Virus record (IMG/VR): IMGVR_UViG_2529292829_000010
Span: 1-33,790 of that record
Length of the DNA: 33,790 nt
DNA from: a virus
Taxonomy: Duplodnaviria; Heunggongvirae; Uroviricota; Caudoviricetes
Strand: one strand, 5' to 3'
The position numbers were made by a program, and so were the translations under genes. This document shows, in pieces, positions 5,838 to 19,129 of the stretch; within the stretch, counting starts at the first letter, position 1, and each line of letters opens with the position of its first letter. The notes beneath the pieces are model-generated. The model searched no databases and had not been told where the DNA came from. It saw nothing but the letters and a program-made list of their open reading frames with translations.

Positions 5838-6485
5838 TTATAGGTTGAACTGTACACCTTTTGCTACGGCAACAATTTTACACTCTGGCGTAAGCAAGGA
5901 TGATTGATAGCGCGGATTGAGAGGACTTAAATACACAAGTTTTCCATCAATAACTAATTTTTTTATAGTCATAGACGGTTCATTTGTAAGAGGATCTGGA
6001 ACTATTACAGCGACGATACTGCCATTTTTATAACTTTCTCCTGGTCTTAGGATCACAGTGGCACCAACTGGGATACTTGGCGACCCTGAGGGGTTATGCA
6101 TAGTGTCATCAGGCATTGAAACGGCAAAATCACCTTCCACTACATCAAAGAATGTGGTGATCCTATCGACATTTCCCATTGTTTTCTCTCCTTCTAAGAT
6201 TAGGAAAGAAATCGCGTCACCCCACGAAAGGTAGGGGATCTTGGTGCCTGGATTGTTCTGCACAAAAGATAGTTCAGGAGACGATACTCCATACAGGAGA
6301 TAGGACTCAGTAGTTCCTAATGCTTGGGCTAACTTACTTAGAGCTTTGCTGCCGGGTTCGTTTAGATCTTTCTCCCAGTACCCTATAGTAACCCCAGTCA
6401 CGCCTGAAAGCTTACCCAGCTCTACTTGGGTGAGTCCCTTATCTTTTCTGAGTTTCTTAAGCCTGATGCCAAGGCTTTCCATCAT
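5838..6485 (-). CDS. cI: CI-type prophage repressor: HTH_XRE N-domain plus S24/LexA-like autopeptidase C-domain, 215 aa
   Basis: HTH LTQVELGKLSGVTGVTIGYWE. C-domain AVSMPDDT and TIKKLVIDGKLVYLSPLNPRY parallel lambda CI NSMTAPT and [21 protein letters not shown] (Ser/Lys dyad). Divergent from the cro-like gene. Confidence 0.9.
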   Translation of the reverse strand: MMESLGIRLKKLRKDKGLTQVELGKLSGVTGVTIGYWEKDLNEPGSKALSKLAQALGTTESYLLYGVSSPELSFVQNNPGTKIPYLSWGDAISFLILEGEKTMGNVDRITTFFDVVEGDFAVSMPDDTMHNPSGSPSIPVGATVILRPGESYKNGSIVAVIVPDPLTNEPSMTIKKLVIDGKLVYLSPLNPRYQSSLLTPECKIVAVAKGVQFNL

Positions 6486-13168: not shown

Positions 13169-13540
13169 ATGCGTATAGAGTTTGTTTTGCCTTACCCGCC
13201 AACGGTGAACACCTACTGGCGACGTCGTGGCAGTACATATTTTGTATCAAAAGCCGGTGAGCGTTATCGCCGTGATGTGGCGCTCATTGTTCGCCAGCAG
13301 CGACTGAAATTAAATCTGTCCGGAAGGCTAGCGATCAGGATTATTGTGGAGCCACCGGATAAGCGCCGTCGTGACCTGGACAATATCCTGAAAGCGCCAC
13401 TGGATGCACTGACACATGCGGGACTGCTTATCGACGACGAGCAGTTTGATGAAATTAATATTGTGCGCAGTCAGCTTGTACCTGGTGGTCGGCTGGGCGT
13501 GAAGATTTACGAAATTACAGGTGGTAACGATGGCACGTGA
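13169..13540 (+). CDS. rusA: Holliday junction resolvase RusA, 123 aa
   Basis: [31 protein letters not shown] closely parallels E. coli RusA [31 protein letters not shown]. AGAGG RBS. Confidence 0.9.
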
Positions 13541-13895
13541 TATTCAGATGGTTCTTGAGCGTTGGGGAGCGTGGGTGGCAAATAATCATGAGGATGTCAC
13601 ATGGCCATCGATTGCTGCTGGCTTTAAAGGATTAATACCGTCGAAAGTTAAATCGCGTCCGCAATGTTCCGACGATGACGCAATGATCATTTGTGGCTGT
13701 ATGGCCCGGTTGAATAAGAACAACAAAGAATTACACGATTTGCTGGTAGATTATTACGTGGCGGGCATGACGTTTATGGCGCTAGCACGAAAGCATGGTC
13801 GTTCGGATTGCTGGGTTGGCCGTTTGTTGCAAAAGGCTGAAGGGATAGTTGACGGCATGTTGATGATGCTTGATATCAAGCTGGACATGGACTGA
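13530..13895 (+). CDS. Late-gene antiterminator Q (short QuuD-type), 121 aa
   Basis: ATG at 13530 six nt after AGGTGG; overlaps the rusA stop. Cys cluster [16 protein letters not shown]. Canonical Q position between rusA and the late region. Confidence 0.75.
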
Positions 13896-13913
13896 TAAAA
13901 CTTAACTCACATA

Positions 13914-13933
13914 CCCTCTCCATGCGGAGAGGG
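13914..13933. terminator. Hairpin between convergent Q and lipoprotein genes (possible bidirectional terminator)
   Basis: CCCTCTCC-ATGC-GGAGAGGG, 8-bp stem. U-rich sequence on both sides is not immediately adjacent. Confidence 0.4.
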
Positions 13934-13939
13934 TATGAA

Positions 13940-14419
13940 TTAAATGTTTTTATAATAACTCGCTTTTTCGTTAAAATTATTTTTGTTTTCTCTGGATGGA
14001 GAACTTACGTAGTTTTCCCATGCGCTATACGTTTTGATTAATGCTTCTCGCTCTGTAGGTGATTTTGTGTTTGCCTTGAGTTTTTCAAATGGTTCTTTTG
14101 CTGCATTTAAAACGATCATCATTTGCTCGATGTCGCAGTCAGCGATTGCTTTTGATATATCGGGATCCCAGCCAACTCTCACTAACATATCTTGCTTGCT
14201 GGAAGTAATAAATTGTGTAGTGTTGATTATCATTTCTCCCTTATATAGAAGCTTTAAAAAATTATTTTTGTTAACTTGCTGGGGCGTGTTGTCCAAGGTG
14301 ATATTTTCGCATTTCTTTAAATACGCATAATGATCACTATTTCTGTTTTCTGCGGAAGATTGAGCCGTACACCCTGTAATGATCAATGTACTTAATAATG
14401 TCAATGCTATTTTTTTCAT
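13940..14419 (-). CDS. Lipoprotein of unknown function, 159 aa (moron)
   Basis: Signal peptide MKKIALTLLSTLIITGC with lipobox ITGC. Gene is visibly AT-rich relative to its flanks and oriented against the surrounding operons. Confidence 0.75.
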   Translation of the reverse strand: MKKIALTLLSTLIITGCTAQSSAENRNSDHYAYLKKCENITLDNTPQQVNKNNFLKLLYKGEMIINTTQFITSSKQDMLVRVGWDPDISKAIADCDIEQMMIVLNAAKEPFEKLKANTKSPTEREALIKTYSAWENYVSSPSRENKNNFNEKASYYKNI

Positions 14420-14495
14420 ATGGGCCTGCTTGTGAATTATCGCACAAGAAAAGTTCGACTAAATTTTATCGTAAAAAGACATCGCCGAACAGATG

Positions 14496-14523
14496 TTTAC
14501 AATCGTAAAAAATCAAATATGCT
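14496..14523 (+). promoter_or_regulatory. Candidate Q-dependent late promoter (PR'-like)
   Basis: -35 TTTACA (14496-14501), 16-nt spacer, -10 TATGCT (14518-14523). A short-transcript terminator follows about 35 nt downstream. Confidence 0.35.
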
Positions 14524-14557: not shown

Positions 14558-14577
14558 CCGCCGCCAGGCGGTTTTTT
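14558..14577 (+). terminator. Candidate tR'-like intrinsic terminator
   Basis: CCGCC-GCCA-GGCGG followed by TTTTTT. Confidence 0.5.
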
Positions 14578-14700
14578 GTGTCCGAAAAACGGCGCAGTAC
14601 GTTAAACGTGCTGGTGGTTGCGAATACCGGTCTTTCAGCTTGCTGGCTTTTTCGACAAGAGTTATTGGTATGTCACGTTAACCAGAAAAGGGAAAAAGAC

Positions 14701-16098: not shown

Positions 16099-16148
16099 AA
16101 CGGATGAGATTGCAGAATTAATTACGCACCATTATTATTCTGCTCCCG

Positions 16149-16224
16149 GCCCTTTAGCTCAGTGGTGAGAGCGAGCGACTCATAATCGCCAGGTCGCTGG
16201 TTCAAATCCAGCAAGGGCCACCAT
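16149..16224 (+). tRNA. tRNA-Ile2 (anticodon CAU, lysidine type; ileZ/ileX-like)
   Basis: Cloverleaf: acceptor GGCCCTT/AAGGGCC, D-arm GCTC-AGTGGTGA-GAGC, anticodon loop CUCAUAA (CAT at 16182-16184), T-loop TTCAAAT, encoded CCA. Close to E. coli ileX as I recall it. Confidence 0.85.
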
Positions 16225-16231
16225 CACATAC

Positions 16232-16305
16232 CGCCATTAGCTCATCGACAGAGAGTGCCAGCTTTCGAAACTGGCTGTGTGGGGCTCGGGTCCCCGATGG
16301 CAATC
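16232..16305 (+). tRNA. Degenerate tRNA-like element (possible pseudo-tRNA, Arg-like UCG)
   Basis: tRNA-like arms, but the D-loop lacks GG, the anticodon stem GCCAG/CTGGC encloses a 9-nt loop CTTTCGAAA, the T-loop is CTCGGGT (no A58), the acceptor pairing is imperfect and there is no CCA. Confidence 0.35.
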
Positions 16306-16320
16306 TATTATCTGCATTAT

Positions 16321-16397
16321 GCGTTGTTAGCTCAGCCGGACAGAGCAATTGCCTTCTAAGCAATCGGTCACTGGTTCGAATCCAGTACAACGCGCCA
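16321..16397 (+). tRNA. tRNA-Arg (anticodon UCU, decodes AGA; argO-like)
   Basis: Acceptor GCGTTGT/ACAACGC, anticodon stem ATTGC/GCAAT with loop CTTCTAA (TCT at 16355-16357), T-loop TTCGAAT, encoded CCA. Confidence 0.85.
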
Positions 16398-16572: not shown

Positions 16573-16998
16573 ATGTTTGGTATTTTCAAAAAGAAAACCC
16601 GCAAGGCCATTACCGAAGTGAAGAAGATGGAGAACCGCGACGCAGTGGAGGCGACCGTCTGGGGCGCGTATTCCATTGCATACGCTGACGGCACCTGTGA
16701 TGCGAAAGAAATCGCAGTACTGGAGAAAACCATTGCAGCACTTCCTGCCTTTGCGCCGTTCTCCGGTGAGATTGCCCAGATGAGCGCCAATATCCGCGCC
16801 CGTTATGAAGCATCCCCGCGTTCAGCCAATGCCGAAGCCCTTCGTCAGCTGGCTGATGTCGCCGGTACTGATGATGCAGTTAATGTGCTGTGCCTGTGTC
16901 TGGATATCGCTGACCAGGATGGCATTGGTCCGGATGAAGAAGCACAGCTCAAGAAAATTGCGCAGGCGCTTCAGCTACCGCTGGAGCAGTACCTGTGA
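16573..16998 (+). CDS. TerB-like domain protein, 141 aa
   Basis: Helical pattern of acidic and hydrophobic residues (AYADGTCDAKEIAVLEKTIAAL ... LDIADQDGIGPDEEAQLKKIAQAL) typical of TerB/DjlA-N-type domains. AAGGA 10 nt upstream. Confidence 0.6.
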   Translation: MFGIFKKKTRKAITEVKKMENRDAVEATVWGAYSIAYADGTCDAKEIAVLEKTIAALPAFAPFSGEIAQMSANIRARYEASPRSANAEALRQLADVAGTDDAVNVLCLCLDIADQDGIGPDEEAQLKKIAQALQLPLEQYL

Positions 16999-17147
16999 AA
17001 AGTGCGCGCCTTGTGCTGGCTGCCATCCTGCTGTTTCTGGTAGTGGCAGTGGATTTCACCGGACGGCTGATGTCGGTGCTGGCAGATGGTGTGCTGGTGG
17101 TGATGGCGCTGGTCGTGCTCCGGCCTTTACTGCGTAAATCTGAATAA
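16995..17147 (+). CDS. Putative 50-aa membrane microprotein (GTG start)
   Basis: GTG at 16995 overlaps the TerB TGA (GTGA). VKSARLVLAAILLFLVVAVDFTGRLMSVLADGVLVVMALVVLRPLLRKSE has two hydrophobic segments. Not in the ORF track. Confidence 0.4.
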   Translation: MKSARLVLAAILLFLVVAVDFTGRLMSVLADGVLVVMALVVLRPLLRKSE

Positions 17148-18447: not shown

Positions 18448-18545
18448 AAACTGACGCTGAAGTGCTGAACACCCTCAACTCATGCAGGCTCTTTTCTGGG
18501 GTTACGATGAGCGAAAGCAAGGGGTACCGCATCAGATAGCAAAAA

Positions 18546-18580
18546 CCCCGGCTGCTGGAACAGTCCGGGGTTTTCTGTTT
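18546..18580 (+). terminator. Intrinsic terminator after the endolysin
   Basis: CCCCGG ... CCGGGG stem followed by TTTTCTGTTT. Confidence 0.65.
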
Positions 18581-18607
18581 CTGGCCTTGGGTAAGGCAAA
18601 GGAGAAC

Positions 18608-18790
18608 ATGAGGAAGTATAAACTAATTCTGTTGAGGTTGACTATGAAAAACGGCCTTGAATTGAAAGCGCCTGTAACTGATGACATCAGCAGAGCGGTG
18701 GCTTTTGCCATTAAGTGGGTGGCGGTTGGTATCGCCGTGTCTCCGATGCTGTATGGGCTGGCAAAACTGGTCATTGCGGTGAAATCGTAA
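18608..18790 (+). CDS. Small membrane protein, 60 aa
   Basis: ATG at 18608 with AAGGAGAAC upstream. C-terminal TM segment VAFAIKWVAVGIAVSPMLYGLAKLVIAV. Confidence 0.45.
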   Translation: MRKYKLILLRLTMKNGLELKAPVTDDISRAVAFAIKWVAVGIAVSPMLYGLAKLVIAVKS

Positions 18791-18801
18791 GTGGGGCGGG
18801 G

Positions 18802-18942
18802 ATGAGTATGTCAGATAGCATCATAAAACTGGCGCGGATTCTTTGTGTGGTTGTTGGCCTTTCATTTTCAGCAATGTTGGTTGCTATTTTCATTTCCACT
18901 GCCTGGCGAGTATTGAGCCTATCCGGATTGATTGGTGGATAG
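18802..18942 (+). CDS. Small membrane protein, 46 aa
   Basis: ATG at 18802. Hydrophobic core ILCVVVGLSFSAMLVAIFISTAW. Weak RBS. Not in the ORF track as a separate gene. Confidence 0.35.
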   Translation: MSMSDSIIKLARILCVVVGLSFSAMLVAIFISTAWRVLSLSGLIGG

Positions 18943-18946
18943 CGAG

Positions 18947-19129
18947 ATGAAGCGAAAACACTGGATACACAGAATGCCGCGAACGGCGGCGAAATGGGTA
19001 CTGGTAGCGATACTTGTGCCTTTTTTATTGGTGGGATGCGTCAGCCTGGATAAGGCGCACCAGCTTTTCGATGCAGCTTCTCAGGTCTGTGAAATTGTCG
19101 ACGGTGTTCGGCAGTGTATGCAGAACTGA
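18947..19129 (+). CDS. Small lipoprotein, 60 aa
   Basis: Signal peptide with lipobox LLVGC. Mature part carries three Cys. Could be an o-spanin-like or exclusion lipoprotein. Confidence 0.5.
   Translation: MKRKHWIHRMPRTAAKWVLVAILVPFLLVGCVSLDKAHQLFDAASQVCEIVDGVRQCMQN

Follow-up and report, generated by a model that had tools for sequence, protein, structure and literature searches.

A reversed lipoprotein gene of the phi80 MorF family between the antiterminator gene Q and the candidate late promoter of a lambda-like prophage

Introduction

Morons are defined by a deviation in guanine plus cytosine (GC) content and by a promoter and terminator of their own (Hendrix/Juhala, summarised in PMC3594210). 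The archetype is gp15 of phage HK97, a block to DNA entry whose gene is a neighbour of the tape-measure gene within the tail operon (PMC3594210). The phage lipoproteins Llp and Cor, which are encoded within structural gene clusters, have been shown by tests to act in superinfection exclusion (10.1101/2022.06.28.497910), and mEpimmI coliphages have Lpp genes within their structural clusters that exclude phages using OmpA or LamB (PMC11893012). GenBank record FN582354 annotates the MorF protein of phage phi80 (CBH95072) as a 'moron gene product' and lipoprotein precursor, and assigns separate −35 and −10 elements, a start site and a terminator to its gene. Here we analyse a relative of the phi80 gene, present in a stretch of 33,790 nucleotides (nt) of DNA taken from the IMG/VR virus record IMGVR_UViG_2529292829_000010 (positions 1 to 33,790; the whole stretch is termed the window). 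The 33.8-kb window is a lambda-like prophage, in which the gene lies in reverse orientation between the antiterminator gene Q and the candidate late promoter PR′.

While the MorF family (phrog_8179 in the PHROGs database) has been annotated since the phi80 genome record, neither the Q-to-PR′ slot nor the reversed orientation has been recorded for it before. A literature search that did not cover the phi80/Lula genome paper (PMC3510586) found no functional study of MorF or phrog_8179, and no mention of WP_001421055 was found. An original prediction, made from the letters of the window, had read the gene as an AT-rich lipoprotein moron with a possible role in exclusion, serum resistance or receptor masking.

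Results

The lipoprotein gene and its product

The features of the locus are itemized in Table 1. The product of the gene begins MKKIALTLLSTLIITGC. At the base composition of this open reading frame (ORF) a run of 160 open codons has a chance probability of 3.6e-6, and on this figure, together with the conservation of the family, a spurious ORF was rejected. The gene is the sole minus-strand gene called from cro to terminase, in both the window and an identical public locus, so that it does lie on the opposite strand to its neighbours, as had been noted. The GC content of the ORF is 0.344, compared with 0.5095 for the whole window, 0.51 for the 3-kb flanks, 0.475 for Q and 0.502 for the methyltransferase gene on the other side. 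It is the lowest-GC stretch of 480 nt in the window; 0.03% of such stretches are equally low, and all of these overlap the ORF. The GC content at third codon positions is also low (0.356), the values for 16 other genes of the window being 0.39-0.58 and those for the immediate neighbours 0.48-0.54.

The N-terminus has the form MKKIALTLLSTLIITG followed directly by C17. An n-region MKK with two lysines (K2 and K3) precedes an uncharged hydrophobic core of 12 residues that includes IALTLLSTLI, and I14-T15-G16-C17 matches the lipobox [LVI][ASTVI][GAS]C with the cysteine inside the range of positions 15-35 expected for lipoproteins. The protein conforms equally to a PROSITE-PS51257-like rule. Among 893 start/ORF combinations of at least 50 amino acids (aa) in the window just seven, derived from five distinct ORFs, conform to this rule. 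The cysteine is present in 26 of 26 aligned members of the family, eight of which give a weak match to Pfam LPAM_1. From these sequence features the product is a lipoprotein of the Sec/LspA type, predicted to be acylated at Cys17. The deviant composition and the lipobox together bear out the original observation of a lipoprotein gene poorer in GC than its neighbours. The range in which it had been placed (13914-14460) takes in the gene, most of the hairpin described below and the likely −10 region.

The residue at position +2 is threonine in the window protein and T, S, A, V or Q across the 26 members. Because aspartate occurs at this position in none of them, sorting to the outer membrane is expected from the Lol rule of E. 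coli. Given the periplasmic location, a disulfide between C37 and C95 is probable in the mature protein.

Structure prediction, suggested originally as a check, was carried out with AlphaFold2 on an alignment of 18 sequences. The model has a predicted local distance difference test score (pLDDT) of 82 and a predicted template modelling score of 0.73. It comprises a four-helix bundle over residues 51-158 (pLDDT 85-98), with helices at 51-82, 86-117, 121-139 and 143-158. A disordered tether runs from residue 17 to approximately residue 30, followed by two short helices around C37. The mature protein is thus predicted to be a compact four-helix bundle in the periplasm, carried on a flexible tether of ~15-30 residues. 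No specific structural or Pfam match was found for the predicted bundle.

An outer-membrane spanin of the Rz1 type would be a short Pro-rich lipoprotein of the lysis cassette that is paired with an inner-membrane spanin. This was excluded, as the protein has 159 aa, is predicted to be helical, and is encoded on the opposite strand 2.7 kb upstream of the holins without a partner. A match to phrog_6073 (Rz-like, E = 0.18) covered the signal peptide only.

The cassette and its boundaries

In blastn comparisons homology to relatives ends at 13894-13897, at the stop codon of Q, and restarts at 14491-14496, at the −35 element of PR′. The gene is therefore placed between the Q stop and the late promoter, in agreement with the original prediction. 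Many E. coli prophages, as well as phiP27 and Stx2 phages, become homologous to the window within ~30 nt of this −35 element (14491-14523). The DNA between the two breakpoints is extra with respect to genes that are neighbours in relatives, and the three compared (K_EC180, C311 and 2D) all have other cargo at this point.

The gene is followed on its own strand by a hairpin, which begins 2 nt beyond the lipoprotein stop codon and 15 nt beyond that of Q, and which is located inside the cassette and not in the shared flank. The minus-strand RNA folds with −26.3 kcal/mol (z = −6.6) and the plus strand with −24.0 kcal/mol (z = −7.7); the minus-strand tail after the hairpin is UGAGUUAAGUUUUAUC. The hairpin is likely to be the terminator of the lipoprotein gene, and corresponds to the separate terminator of the moron definition. 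Upstream of the gene the cassette contains 76 bp of AT-rich DNA. A candidate promoter can be read there by hand, with a predicted start near 14430, a leader of 11 nt, and AGG located 5 nt ahead of the ATG. Beyond the right-hand boundary, the PR′-like promoter and the hairpin that follows it would form the layout expected of a lambdoid PR′-tR′ unit.

Taking the breakpoints, the composition and the hairpin together, we consider with little reservation that the feature is a self-contained moron cassette, swapped into a hot spot between the Q stop and PR′ of a lambda-like prophage, against the direction of phage transcription. The reading as a moron put forward originally is thus upheld by exact breaks in homology, by unrelated cargo in relatives and by the hairpin, and also by homologues in four other slots (see below).

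Two sets of repeats occur near the ends of the cassette. There is an 11-nt imperfect inverted repeat, GATAAAACTTA and TAAATTTTATC, at 13894-13904 and 14460-14470. A 10-nt direct repeat ATCGTAAAAA at 14468-14477 and 14502-14511 straddles the right boundary, with one copy in the spacer of PR′. These repeats are at about the level expected by chance in AT-rich DNA, and were rejected as insertion scars.

Table 1. Coordinates of the lipoprotein cassette and adjoining features in the window
Feature	Position	Strand	Basis and details
Antiterminator Q gene, convergent with the lipoprotein gene	13521-13895	+	Pfam PF06530, E = 6e-51; stop TGA 13893-13895
Swappable moron cassette (terminator, lipoprotein gene, promoter region)	13896-14495	.	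blastn breakpoints; 600 bp, 35.6% GC
Hairpin, perfect 12-bp GC-rich stem, 4-nt loop	13910-13937	.	inverted-repeat search and fold
Prolipoprotein gene	13940-14419	-	159 aa; starts with ATG, none in frame farther upstream
Signal peptide, residues 1-16, ending in lipobox I-T-G	14372-14419	-	sequence and lipobox rule; Cys17 codon 14369-14371
Candidate promoter of the lipoprotein gene	14436-14464	-	read by hand; extended −10 TGcGATAAT 14444-14436, weak −35 ATTTAG 14464-14459
Candidate late promoter PR′, TTTACA-16-TATGCT	14496-14523	+	promoter scan
Candidate tR′ terminator, CCGCC-AGG-GGCGG then T7	14558-14580	+	terminator scan and fold; ~30 nt past predicted PR′ start

Relationship to phi80 MorF

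The window protein falls into phrog_8179 (unknown function) with E = 9.7e-100 over positions 1-159 of 159. A tblastn comparison with phage genomes aligned residues 16-159 (91% of the length) to phi80 MorF with 36.5% identity and E = 1e-17, and copies of MorF in phages Eeyore and Flotzy were matched likewise. Judged by sequence homology, the window protein is a divergent member of the small phi80 MorF/phrog_8179 family. An exhaustive search of 1.84 billion cluster representatives was made at E <= 0.001 with a profile of the window protein and MorF-related sequences. Only 28 clusters, defined at 50% identity, were returned, and nothing outside the family. The 22 genuine members for which sequences were retrieved have 122-172 aa and a lipobox in all but the N-terminally truncated P0064. 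The 456-aa repeat protein P0069 (E = 9e-4) was also returned and looks spurious.

The alignment of 26 members representing the wider family (A2) shows no variation at C17, C95, L127, W134 and Y156, and conservation of at least 90% at C37. The features common to the window protein and the MorF clade (A1) are C17, C37, C95, VGW at 82-84, FE at 111-112 and W134-E135. Together with its closest relative P0048 (53% identity), the window gene forms part of a subclade of its own that is richer in AT. The original prediction had recognised no motif in the mature protein. While it is true that no Pfam family is matched at E <= 0.01, the protein is no orphan given its membership of the MorF family. No PADLOC-DB defence profile matches the window protein or MorF at E <= 1. 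A sequence search of the PDB gave matches at the level of the signal peptide only, and the family profile reaches no PDB chain. The NCBIfam matches were likewise confined to the signal peptide, apart from one weak match to the SP0191 family lipoproteins (residues 1-114, E = 0.004), with 17 bits against a cut-off of 75.

A further lead concerns the lysozyme-inhibitor family LprI/DUF1311 (PF07007), to which 5 of the 26 members give sub-threshold matches (E < 1). The best is that of P0065, where residues 78-133 align with profile positions 9-72 (E = 0.0055; 17.5 bits, the cut-off being 22) and the aligned part includes the conserved cysteine and the helix containing 'AL..Y..W..Y'. One member has in addition a weak match to the pesticin immunity family. 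Known periplasmic inhibitors share the design of an outer-membrane lipoprotein with a disulfide. These likenesses would fit a periplasmic inhibitor or immunity protein, either resembling LprI or MliC and directed against lysozyme, or an orphan immunity protein against peptidoglycan-degrading toxins, colicins or tail lysins, in which the helical bundle neutralises the enzyme. All the PF07007 matches lie below the curated threshold, however, and none comes from the window protein. The confinement of the profile search to the family itself also speaks against this explanation. E. coli YecT is a bona fide member of PF07007 (E = 1e-17), and its relatives were collected for an alignment; hhalign of the family against this alignment gave a probability of 0.4%, the YecT alignment being shallow (effective number of sequences 1.7). 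The YecT profile was too narrow to reach the DUF1311 structures in the PDB. The lead is thus unconfirmed, and we keep an inhibitor as a rival explanation to which we give a small probability.

Location of the family in phage genomes

Fifty IMG/VR contigs carry members of the family in four slots. In 30 the gene directly follows the tape-measure gene H (~105 nt downstream), in 16 it lies between I and J as in phi80, and in one between K and I. These 47 copies are placed in the tail operon and oriented with it. The remaining three occupy the slot between Q and PR′ and are reversed. P0048 has a fifth location, in the leftward early region beside antA/ANT/kil/gam genes, so that five slots are known for the family, all in temperate siphophages. 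Species-level genomes with a copy belong to Enterobacter, Pseudocitrobacter, Atlantibacter, Pseudescherichia and Kluyvera, and there are further protein matches in Citrobacter, Leclercia and Salmonella.

Ten family genes were examined for GC content (0.33-0.48, their 3-kb flanks having 0.46-0.56); eight fall below both flanks and the other two below one. In the MorF clade a conserved promoter-like motif, TTACAT...(17)...TGGTTATCAT, accompanies the gene into two tail slots, and a terminator-like hairpin is found downstream of most copies. Movement between slots, deviant GC content and signals of its own constitute textbook moron behaviour as set out in PMC3594210.

The gap between H and M in prophages of the Citrobacter/Kluyvera type is another moron hot spot (L027:4900-7185, L051-L082). 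The MorF-like gene always comes first there, followed by 41-4780 nt of variable DNA before M. In L027-L031 and five IMG/VR loci the variable DNA is a reversed gene with a SNIPE/T5orf172/MUG113 domain.

The phi80 gene itself (FN582354, L002:4406-4441) stops at a TAA eight codons early, with loss of the conserved ...KVSYYKNM tail. The full mature protein of 142-143 aa is encoded in 18 of 19 other phi80-like loci, the other (L049) being cut to 51 aa. Laboratory phi80 may therefore carry a defective copy.

Location in the late operon raises the possibility that the protein aids lytic growth, either by a 'lytic conversion' like that of T5 Llp, sparing the loss of progeny on debris and infected cells, or by assisting the tail or its tip. 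The 47 co-oriented copies would be read through late in infection, and Llp is made early in lytic infection (10.1101/2022.06.28.497910). Against this, early (PR) and late (PR′) transcription both run antisense to the window gene, which would thus be repressed during lytic growth; phi80 grows with a truncated MorF; and the gene has a candidate promoter and a likely terminator of its own. We regard a lytic function as quite improbable.

In the 19 phi80-like loci mature MorF is 91-100% identical to that of phi80, and the first 800 aa of the J protein show 91-99% identity. In its receptor-binding part, the last 250 aa, identity is only 37-92%, and the length of J varies from 1109 to 1352 aa. Masking of a receptor, one of the functions suggested originally, is weakened by the constancy of MorF beside so variable a receptor-binding end. 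It was also seen that this end of J is often swapped independently of MorF (L003, L022, L023, L038-L061, L084).

The Q-to-PR′ slot in relatives

The corresponding slot in E. coli K_EC180 has 507 bp (L004:3096-3602) and holds a gene for a secreted, basic, cysteine-rich protein with the signal peptide MFKKSLLLTLVMCLLFSSFADA, which matches no PHROG. In C311 (881 bp, L005:3096-3976) and 2D (902 bp, L006:3099-4000) it holds a gene with an ORF6N domain. All this alternative cargo is co-oriented with Q. The gap between Q and PR′ is thus a cargo hot spot of this phage group. It had been called a classic slot for lysogenic-conversion genes with bor, lom and cor as examples, but those genes lie elsewhere.

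The cargo of K_EC180 indicates that the slot takes envelope or secreted proteins. That is consistent with a lipoprotein acting on host fitness or virulence like lambda Bor/Iss or plasmid TraT, through serum or complement resistance, adhesion or a more robust envelope, and having no part in conflict between phages. The gross design is also that of Bor, an outer-membrane lipoprotein whose AT-rich gene is carried by a prophage and transcribed separately. Nevertheless neither Pfam nor NCBIfam gives a match to Bor/Iss or TraT, and the cassette is rare in E. coli, being found in one of 5426 complete genomes (RM11911). Moreover, the family resides mostly in prophage tail operons of Citrobacter, Enterobacter, Kluyvera, Leclercia, Atlantibacter and Pseudescherichia and not in pathogen-specific elements. 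Serum resistance, as first proposed, therefore finds no support among the Pfam families scanned, which included that of Bor and none of which was matched; such a host-directed role seems improbable.

The exact lipoprotein is indexed in 380 blocks of a large assembly collection. Of the loci retrieved, 14 reach beyond the gene; in all 14 Q lies on one side of it, and on the other side, wherever this is covered, are the 65-aa ORF and the methyltransferase gene. The immunity, replication and packaging modules around the Q-lipoprotein unit are mosaic in the retrieved loci. Fifteen public copies were compared with the window gene and show 0-2 nt differences. Compared segment by segment in eight prophages, Q is 99.5-100% and the cassette 99.2-100% identical. 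Five of the eight have divergent flanks, with rusA 91-94% and the stretch from PR′ to the 65-aa ORF 95-97% identical. As Q and the cassette are near-identical while the flanks have diverged, the unit of exchange in this lineage is Q plus the reversed lipoprotein gene, which suggests a recent spread of the two as a single recombination unit.

Inheritance of Q and the cassette as one block would also be expected if the orientation were itself the function. Transcription of the cassette converges on Q, and could exert control by antisense RNA or collision, as with lambda paQ, tightening lysogeny with the protein being secondary. The hairpin lies close to the Q stop and has a weak U tract, so that read-through into Q is conceivable. 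Yet the hairpin is very stable, the other cargo in the slot is co-oriented with Q, and in four other slots, with no Q nearby, the lipoprotein family is conserved all the same. Control of Q as the primary function is highly improbable, and damping of Q by convergent transcription is better regarded as a side possibility of the reversed copy.

Other features of the window

The left end of the window contains the integrase gene and the leftward early operon, followed by a cI-like repressor gene at 5838-6485 (minus strand). The rightward block starts with cro, replication genes, a hok-like toxin gene, DUF968, RusA and Q. After the cassette it continues with the 65-aa ORF, an N6/N4 DNA methyltransferase gene, two transfer RNA (tRNA) genes and a TerB-like gene, and then two holin genes, a GH108 endolysin gene, terminase, and the head and tail genes.

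In the nin-like region upstream of DUF968-RusA-Q, the segment 10587-11665 (plus strand) contains a QueH-like gene of 228 aa (PF02677 in the identical public locus) and the toxin gene of hok/gef type (51 aa, phrog_251). Genes for tRNA-Met (CAT) and tRNA-Arg (TCT) are located downstream of the methyltransferase gene at 16148-16397 (plus strand). Between them 16231-16304 gives a weak tRNA-like match below threshold (23.7 bits, threshold 29). The tRNA sets at the same place differ in relatives, being tRNA-Gly in RM11911 and Ile/other/Arg in K_EC180. Immediately upstream of the holins, in 16573-17147 (plus strand), the TerB-like gene (Pfam TerB, E = 1e-7; phrog_632 'tellurite resistance', E = 4e-65) shares an overlap with a gene for a TciB-like membrane protein of 50 aa (phrog_1470).

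Another small ORF for a lipoprotein (60 aa) lies at 18947-19129 (plus strand), 0.5 kb past the endolysin gene. Its product contains ...VLVAILVPFLLVGC followed by VSLDK..., and has two more cysteines. It is preceded by small membrane-protein ORFs at 18482-18942, and all of these belong to PHROGs of unknown function (phrog_7528, 1115 and 4906). No obvious Rz/Rz1 pair was seen, so the ORFs in 18482-19129 might be a spanin equivalent or another moron.

Discussion

The position of the gene and the design of its product, seen against the precedents of Llp/Cor, the mEpimmI Lpp proteins and HK97 gp15, lead us to favour exclusion or protection of the envelope. The design is that of a prophage-borne, predicted outer-membrane lipoprotein, presumably transcribed separately, with a predicted disulfide and without an enzymatic domain. 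Exclusion was also the first role suggested for the protein originally, and we infer it with due caution: our preferred, though tentative, explanation is that the protein is a prophage-expressed factor for envelope protection or superinfection exclusion acting at the periplasmic face of the outer membrane. The gene would be transcribed from its own promoter in the lysogen, when read-through from PR and PR′ is off, and the lipoprotein would protect the lysogen against attack at the level of the envelope. The most probable target would be superinfecting siphophages at a stage after the choice of receptor, either during opening of the tail tip or while the tape-measure protein and DNA cross the periplasm. 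That a single receptor is masked would be less likely. A target independent of the receptor is preferred to a Cor-like lock because MorF stays constant while the end of J varies, and because the window gene is linked to Q. As the window copy is antisense to PR and PR′, it would be expressed only in the lysogen; after induction, convergent transcription from PR through Q, antisense to the gene, would shut it down.

A number of points weigh against this explanation. The consensus promoter scan found no suitable minus-strand site upstream of the gene, and since the scanner missed it the promoter is treated here as a candidate only; it is the weakest part of the cassette anatomy. The hairpin behind the gene does not appear in the list from the terminator scan and its U tract is modest. 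The window gene is linked to Q and lies >15 kb from the tail genes, so that the argument from the tail operon comes from a sister clade that is ~30-38% identical. Silencing by H-NS is plausible at 34% GC. Lastly, since phi80 MorF lacks eight residues, the gene is dispensable for the phage.

A broader proposal is that MorF/phrog_8179 constitutes a new and structurally distinct class of exclusion protein, a tethered four-helix bundle that intercepts the tail tip or the tape-measure conduit whatever the receptor. We put this forward as doubtful. Interception of that kind would explain both why the gene hitch-hikes beside tape-measure and J genes and how it could work after a move to the slot between Q and PR′. 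If true, a receptor-independent mechanism would be added to the short list of envelope-level exclusion proteins (Cor/Llp, HK97 gp15, SieA and Ltp), which would bear on the prediction of host range and on the use of phages in therapy against Enterobacteriaceae. Taken alone, the window gene is an uncharacterised and unsurprising candidate for lysogenic conversion. Whatever its function, it provides a clean example of a moron family moving among at least five slots of lambda-like genomes.

The gene falls outside Cor/Llp, Bor/Iss, TraT, the spanins and any PADLOC family. Like lambda Bor/Iss, it is a prophage gene in a lambdoid right arm, presumably transcribed separately, and its product is a predicted outer-membrane lipoprotein. 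It differs in having no sequence match, the Bor family being absent from the Pfam matches of all 26 members; in addition Bor has 97 aa, and bor is located after the lysis genes.

The proteins that block FhuA, T5 Llp and Cor of phi80, T1, HK022 and N15, are, as is predicted for the window protein, periplasm-facing outer-membrane lipoproteins of phages that lack an enzymatic domain. Llp, moreover, has a lipidated cysteine and a single intramolecular disulfide (Cys11-Cys58), to which the probable C37-C95 of the window protein would correspond. However, the mature window protein has 143 aa and is predicted to be all-helical, compared with roughly 60 aa for Cor/Llp, and the gene is linked to Q instead of adjoining a receptor-binding gene. 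The MorF clade shows no co-variation with the end of J. The sole match found to either protein was phrog_1119 (Cor) at E = 0.14, confined to residues 1-35 and thus to the signal peptide.

HK97 gp15 and Ltp of the S. thermophilus phage TP-J34 are, like the proposed role of the window protein, products of add-on genes of temperate siphophages that the prophage expresses and that block entry after adsorption. Ltp is a lipid-tethered, all-helical protein. Within the tail operon the gp15 gene adjoins the tape-measure gene, and the same is true of the family gene in 30 of the 50 loci. They differ in that gp15 is an inner-membrane protein, while Ltp is Gram-positive and has helix-turn-helix-like repeats. 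No match to gp15 or Ltp was found in sequence or fold, and any likeness of mechanism would be conjectural.

The closest comparison is with phi80 MorF. That gene lies between I and J, co-oriented with the late operon, whereas the window gene lies in reverse orientation between Q and PR′. There is no relationship between the upstream regions, and the phi80 copy is without its last eight residues. In other respects the two correspond: they have near full-length homology at ~160 aa, the lipobox cysteine with two further cysteines, the VGW, FE, SxWE and YYKN motifs, a GC content below that of the flanks, and candidate promoter and terminator elements of their own.

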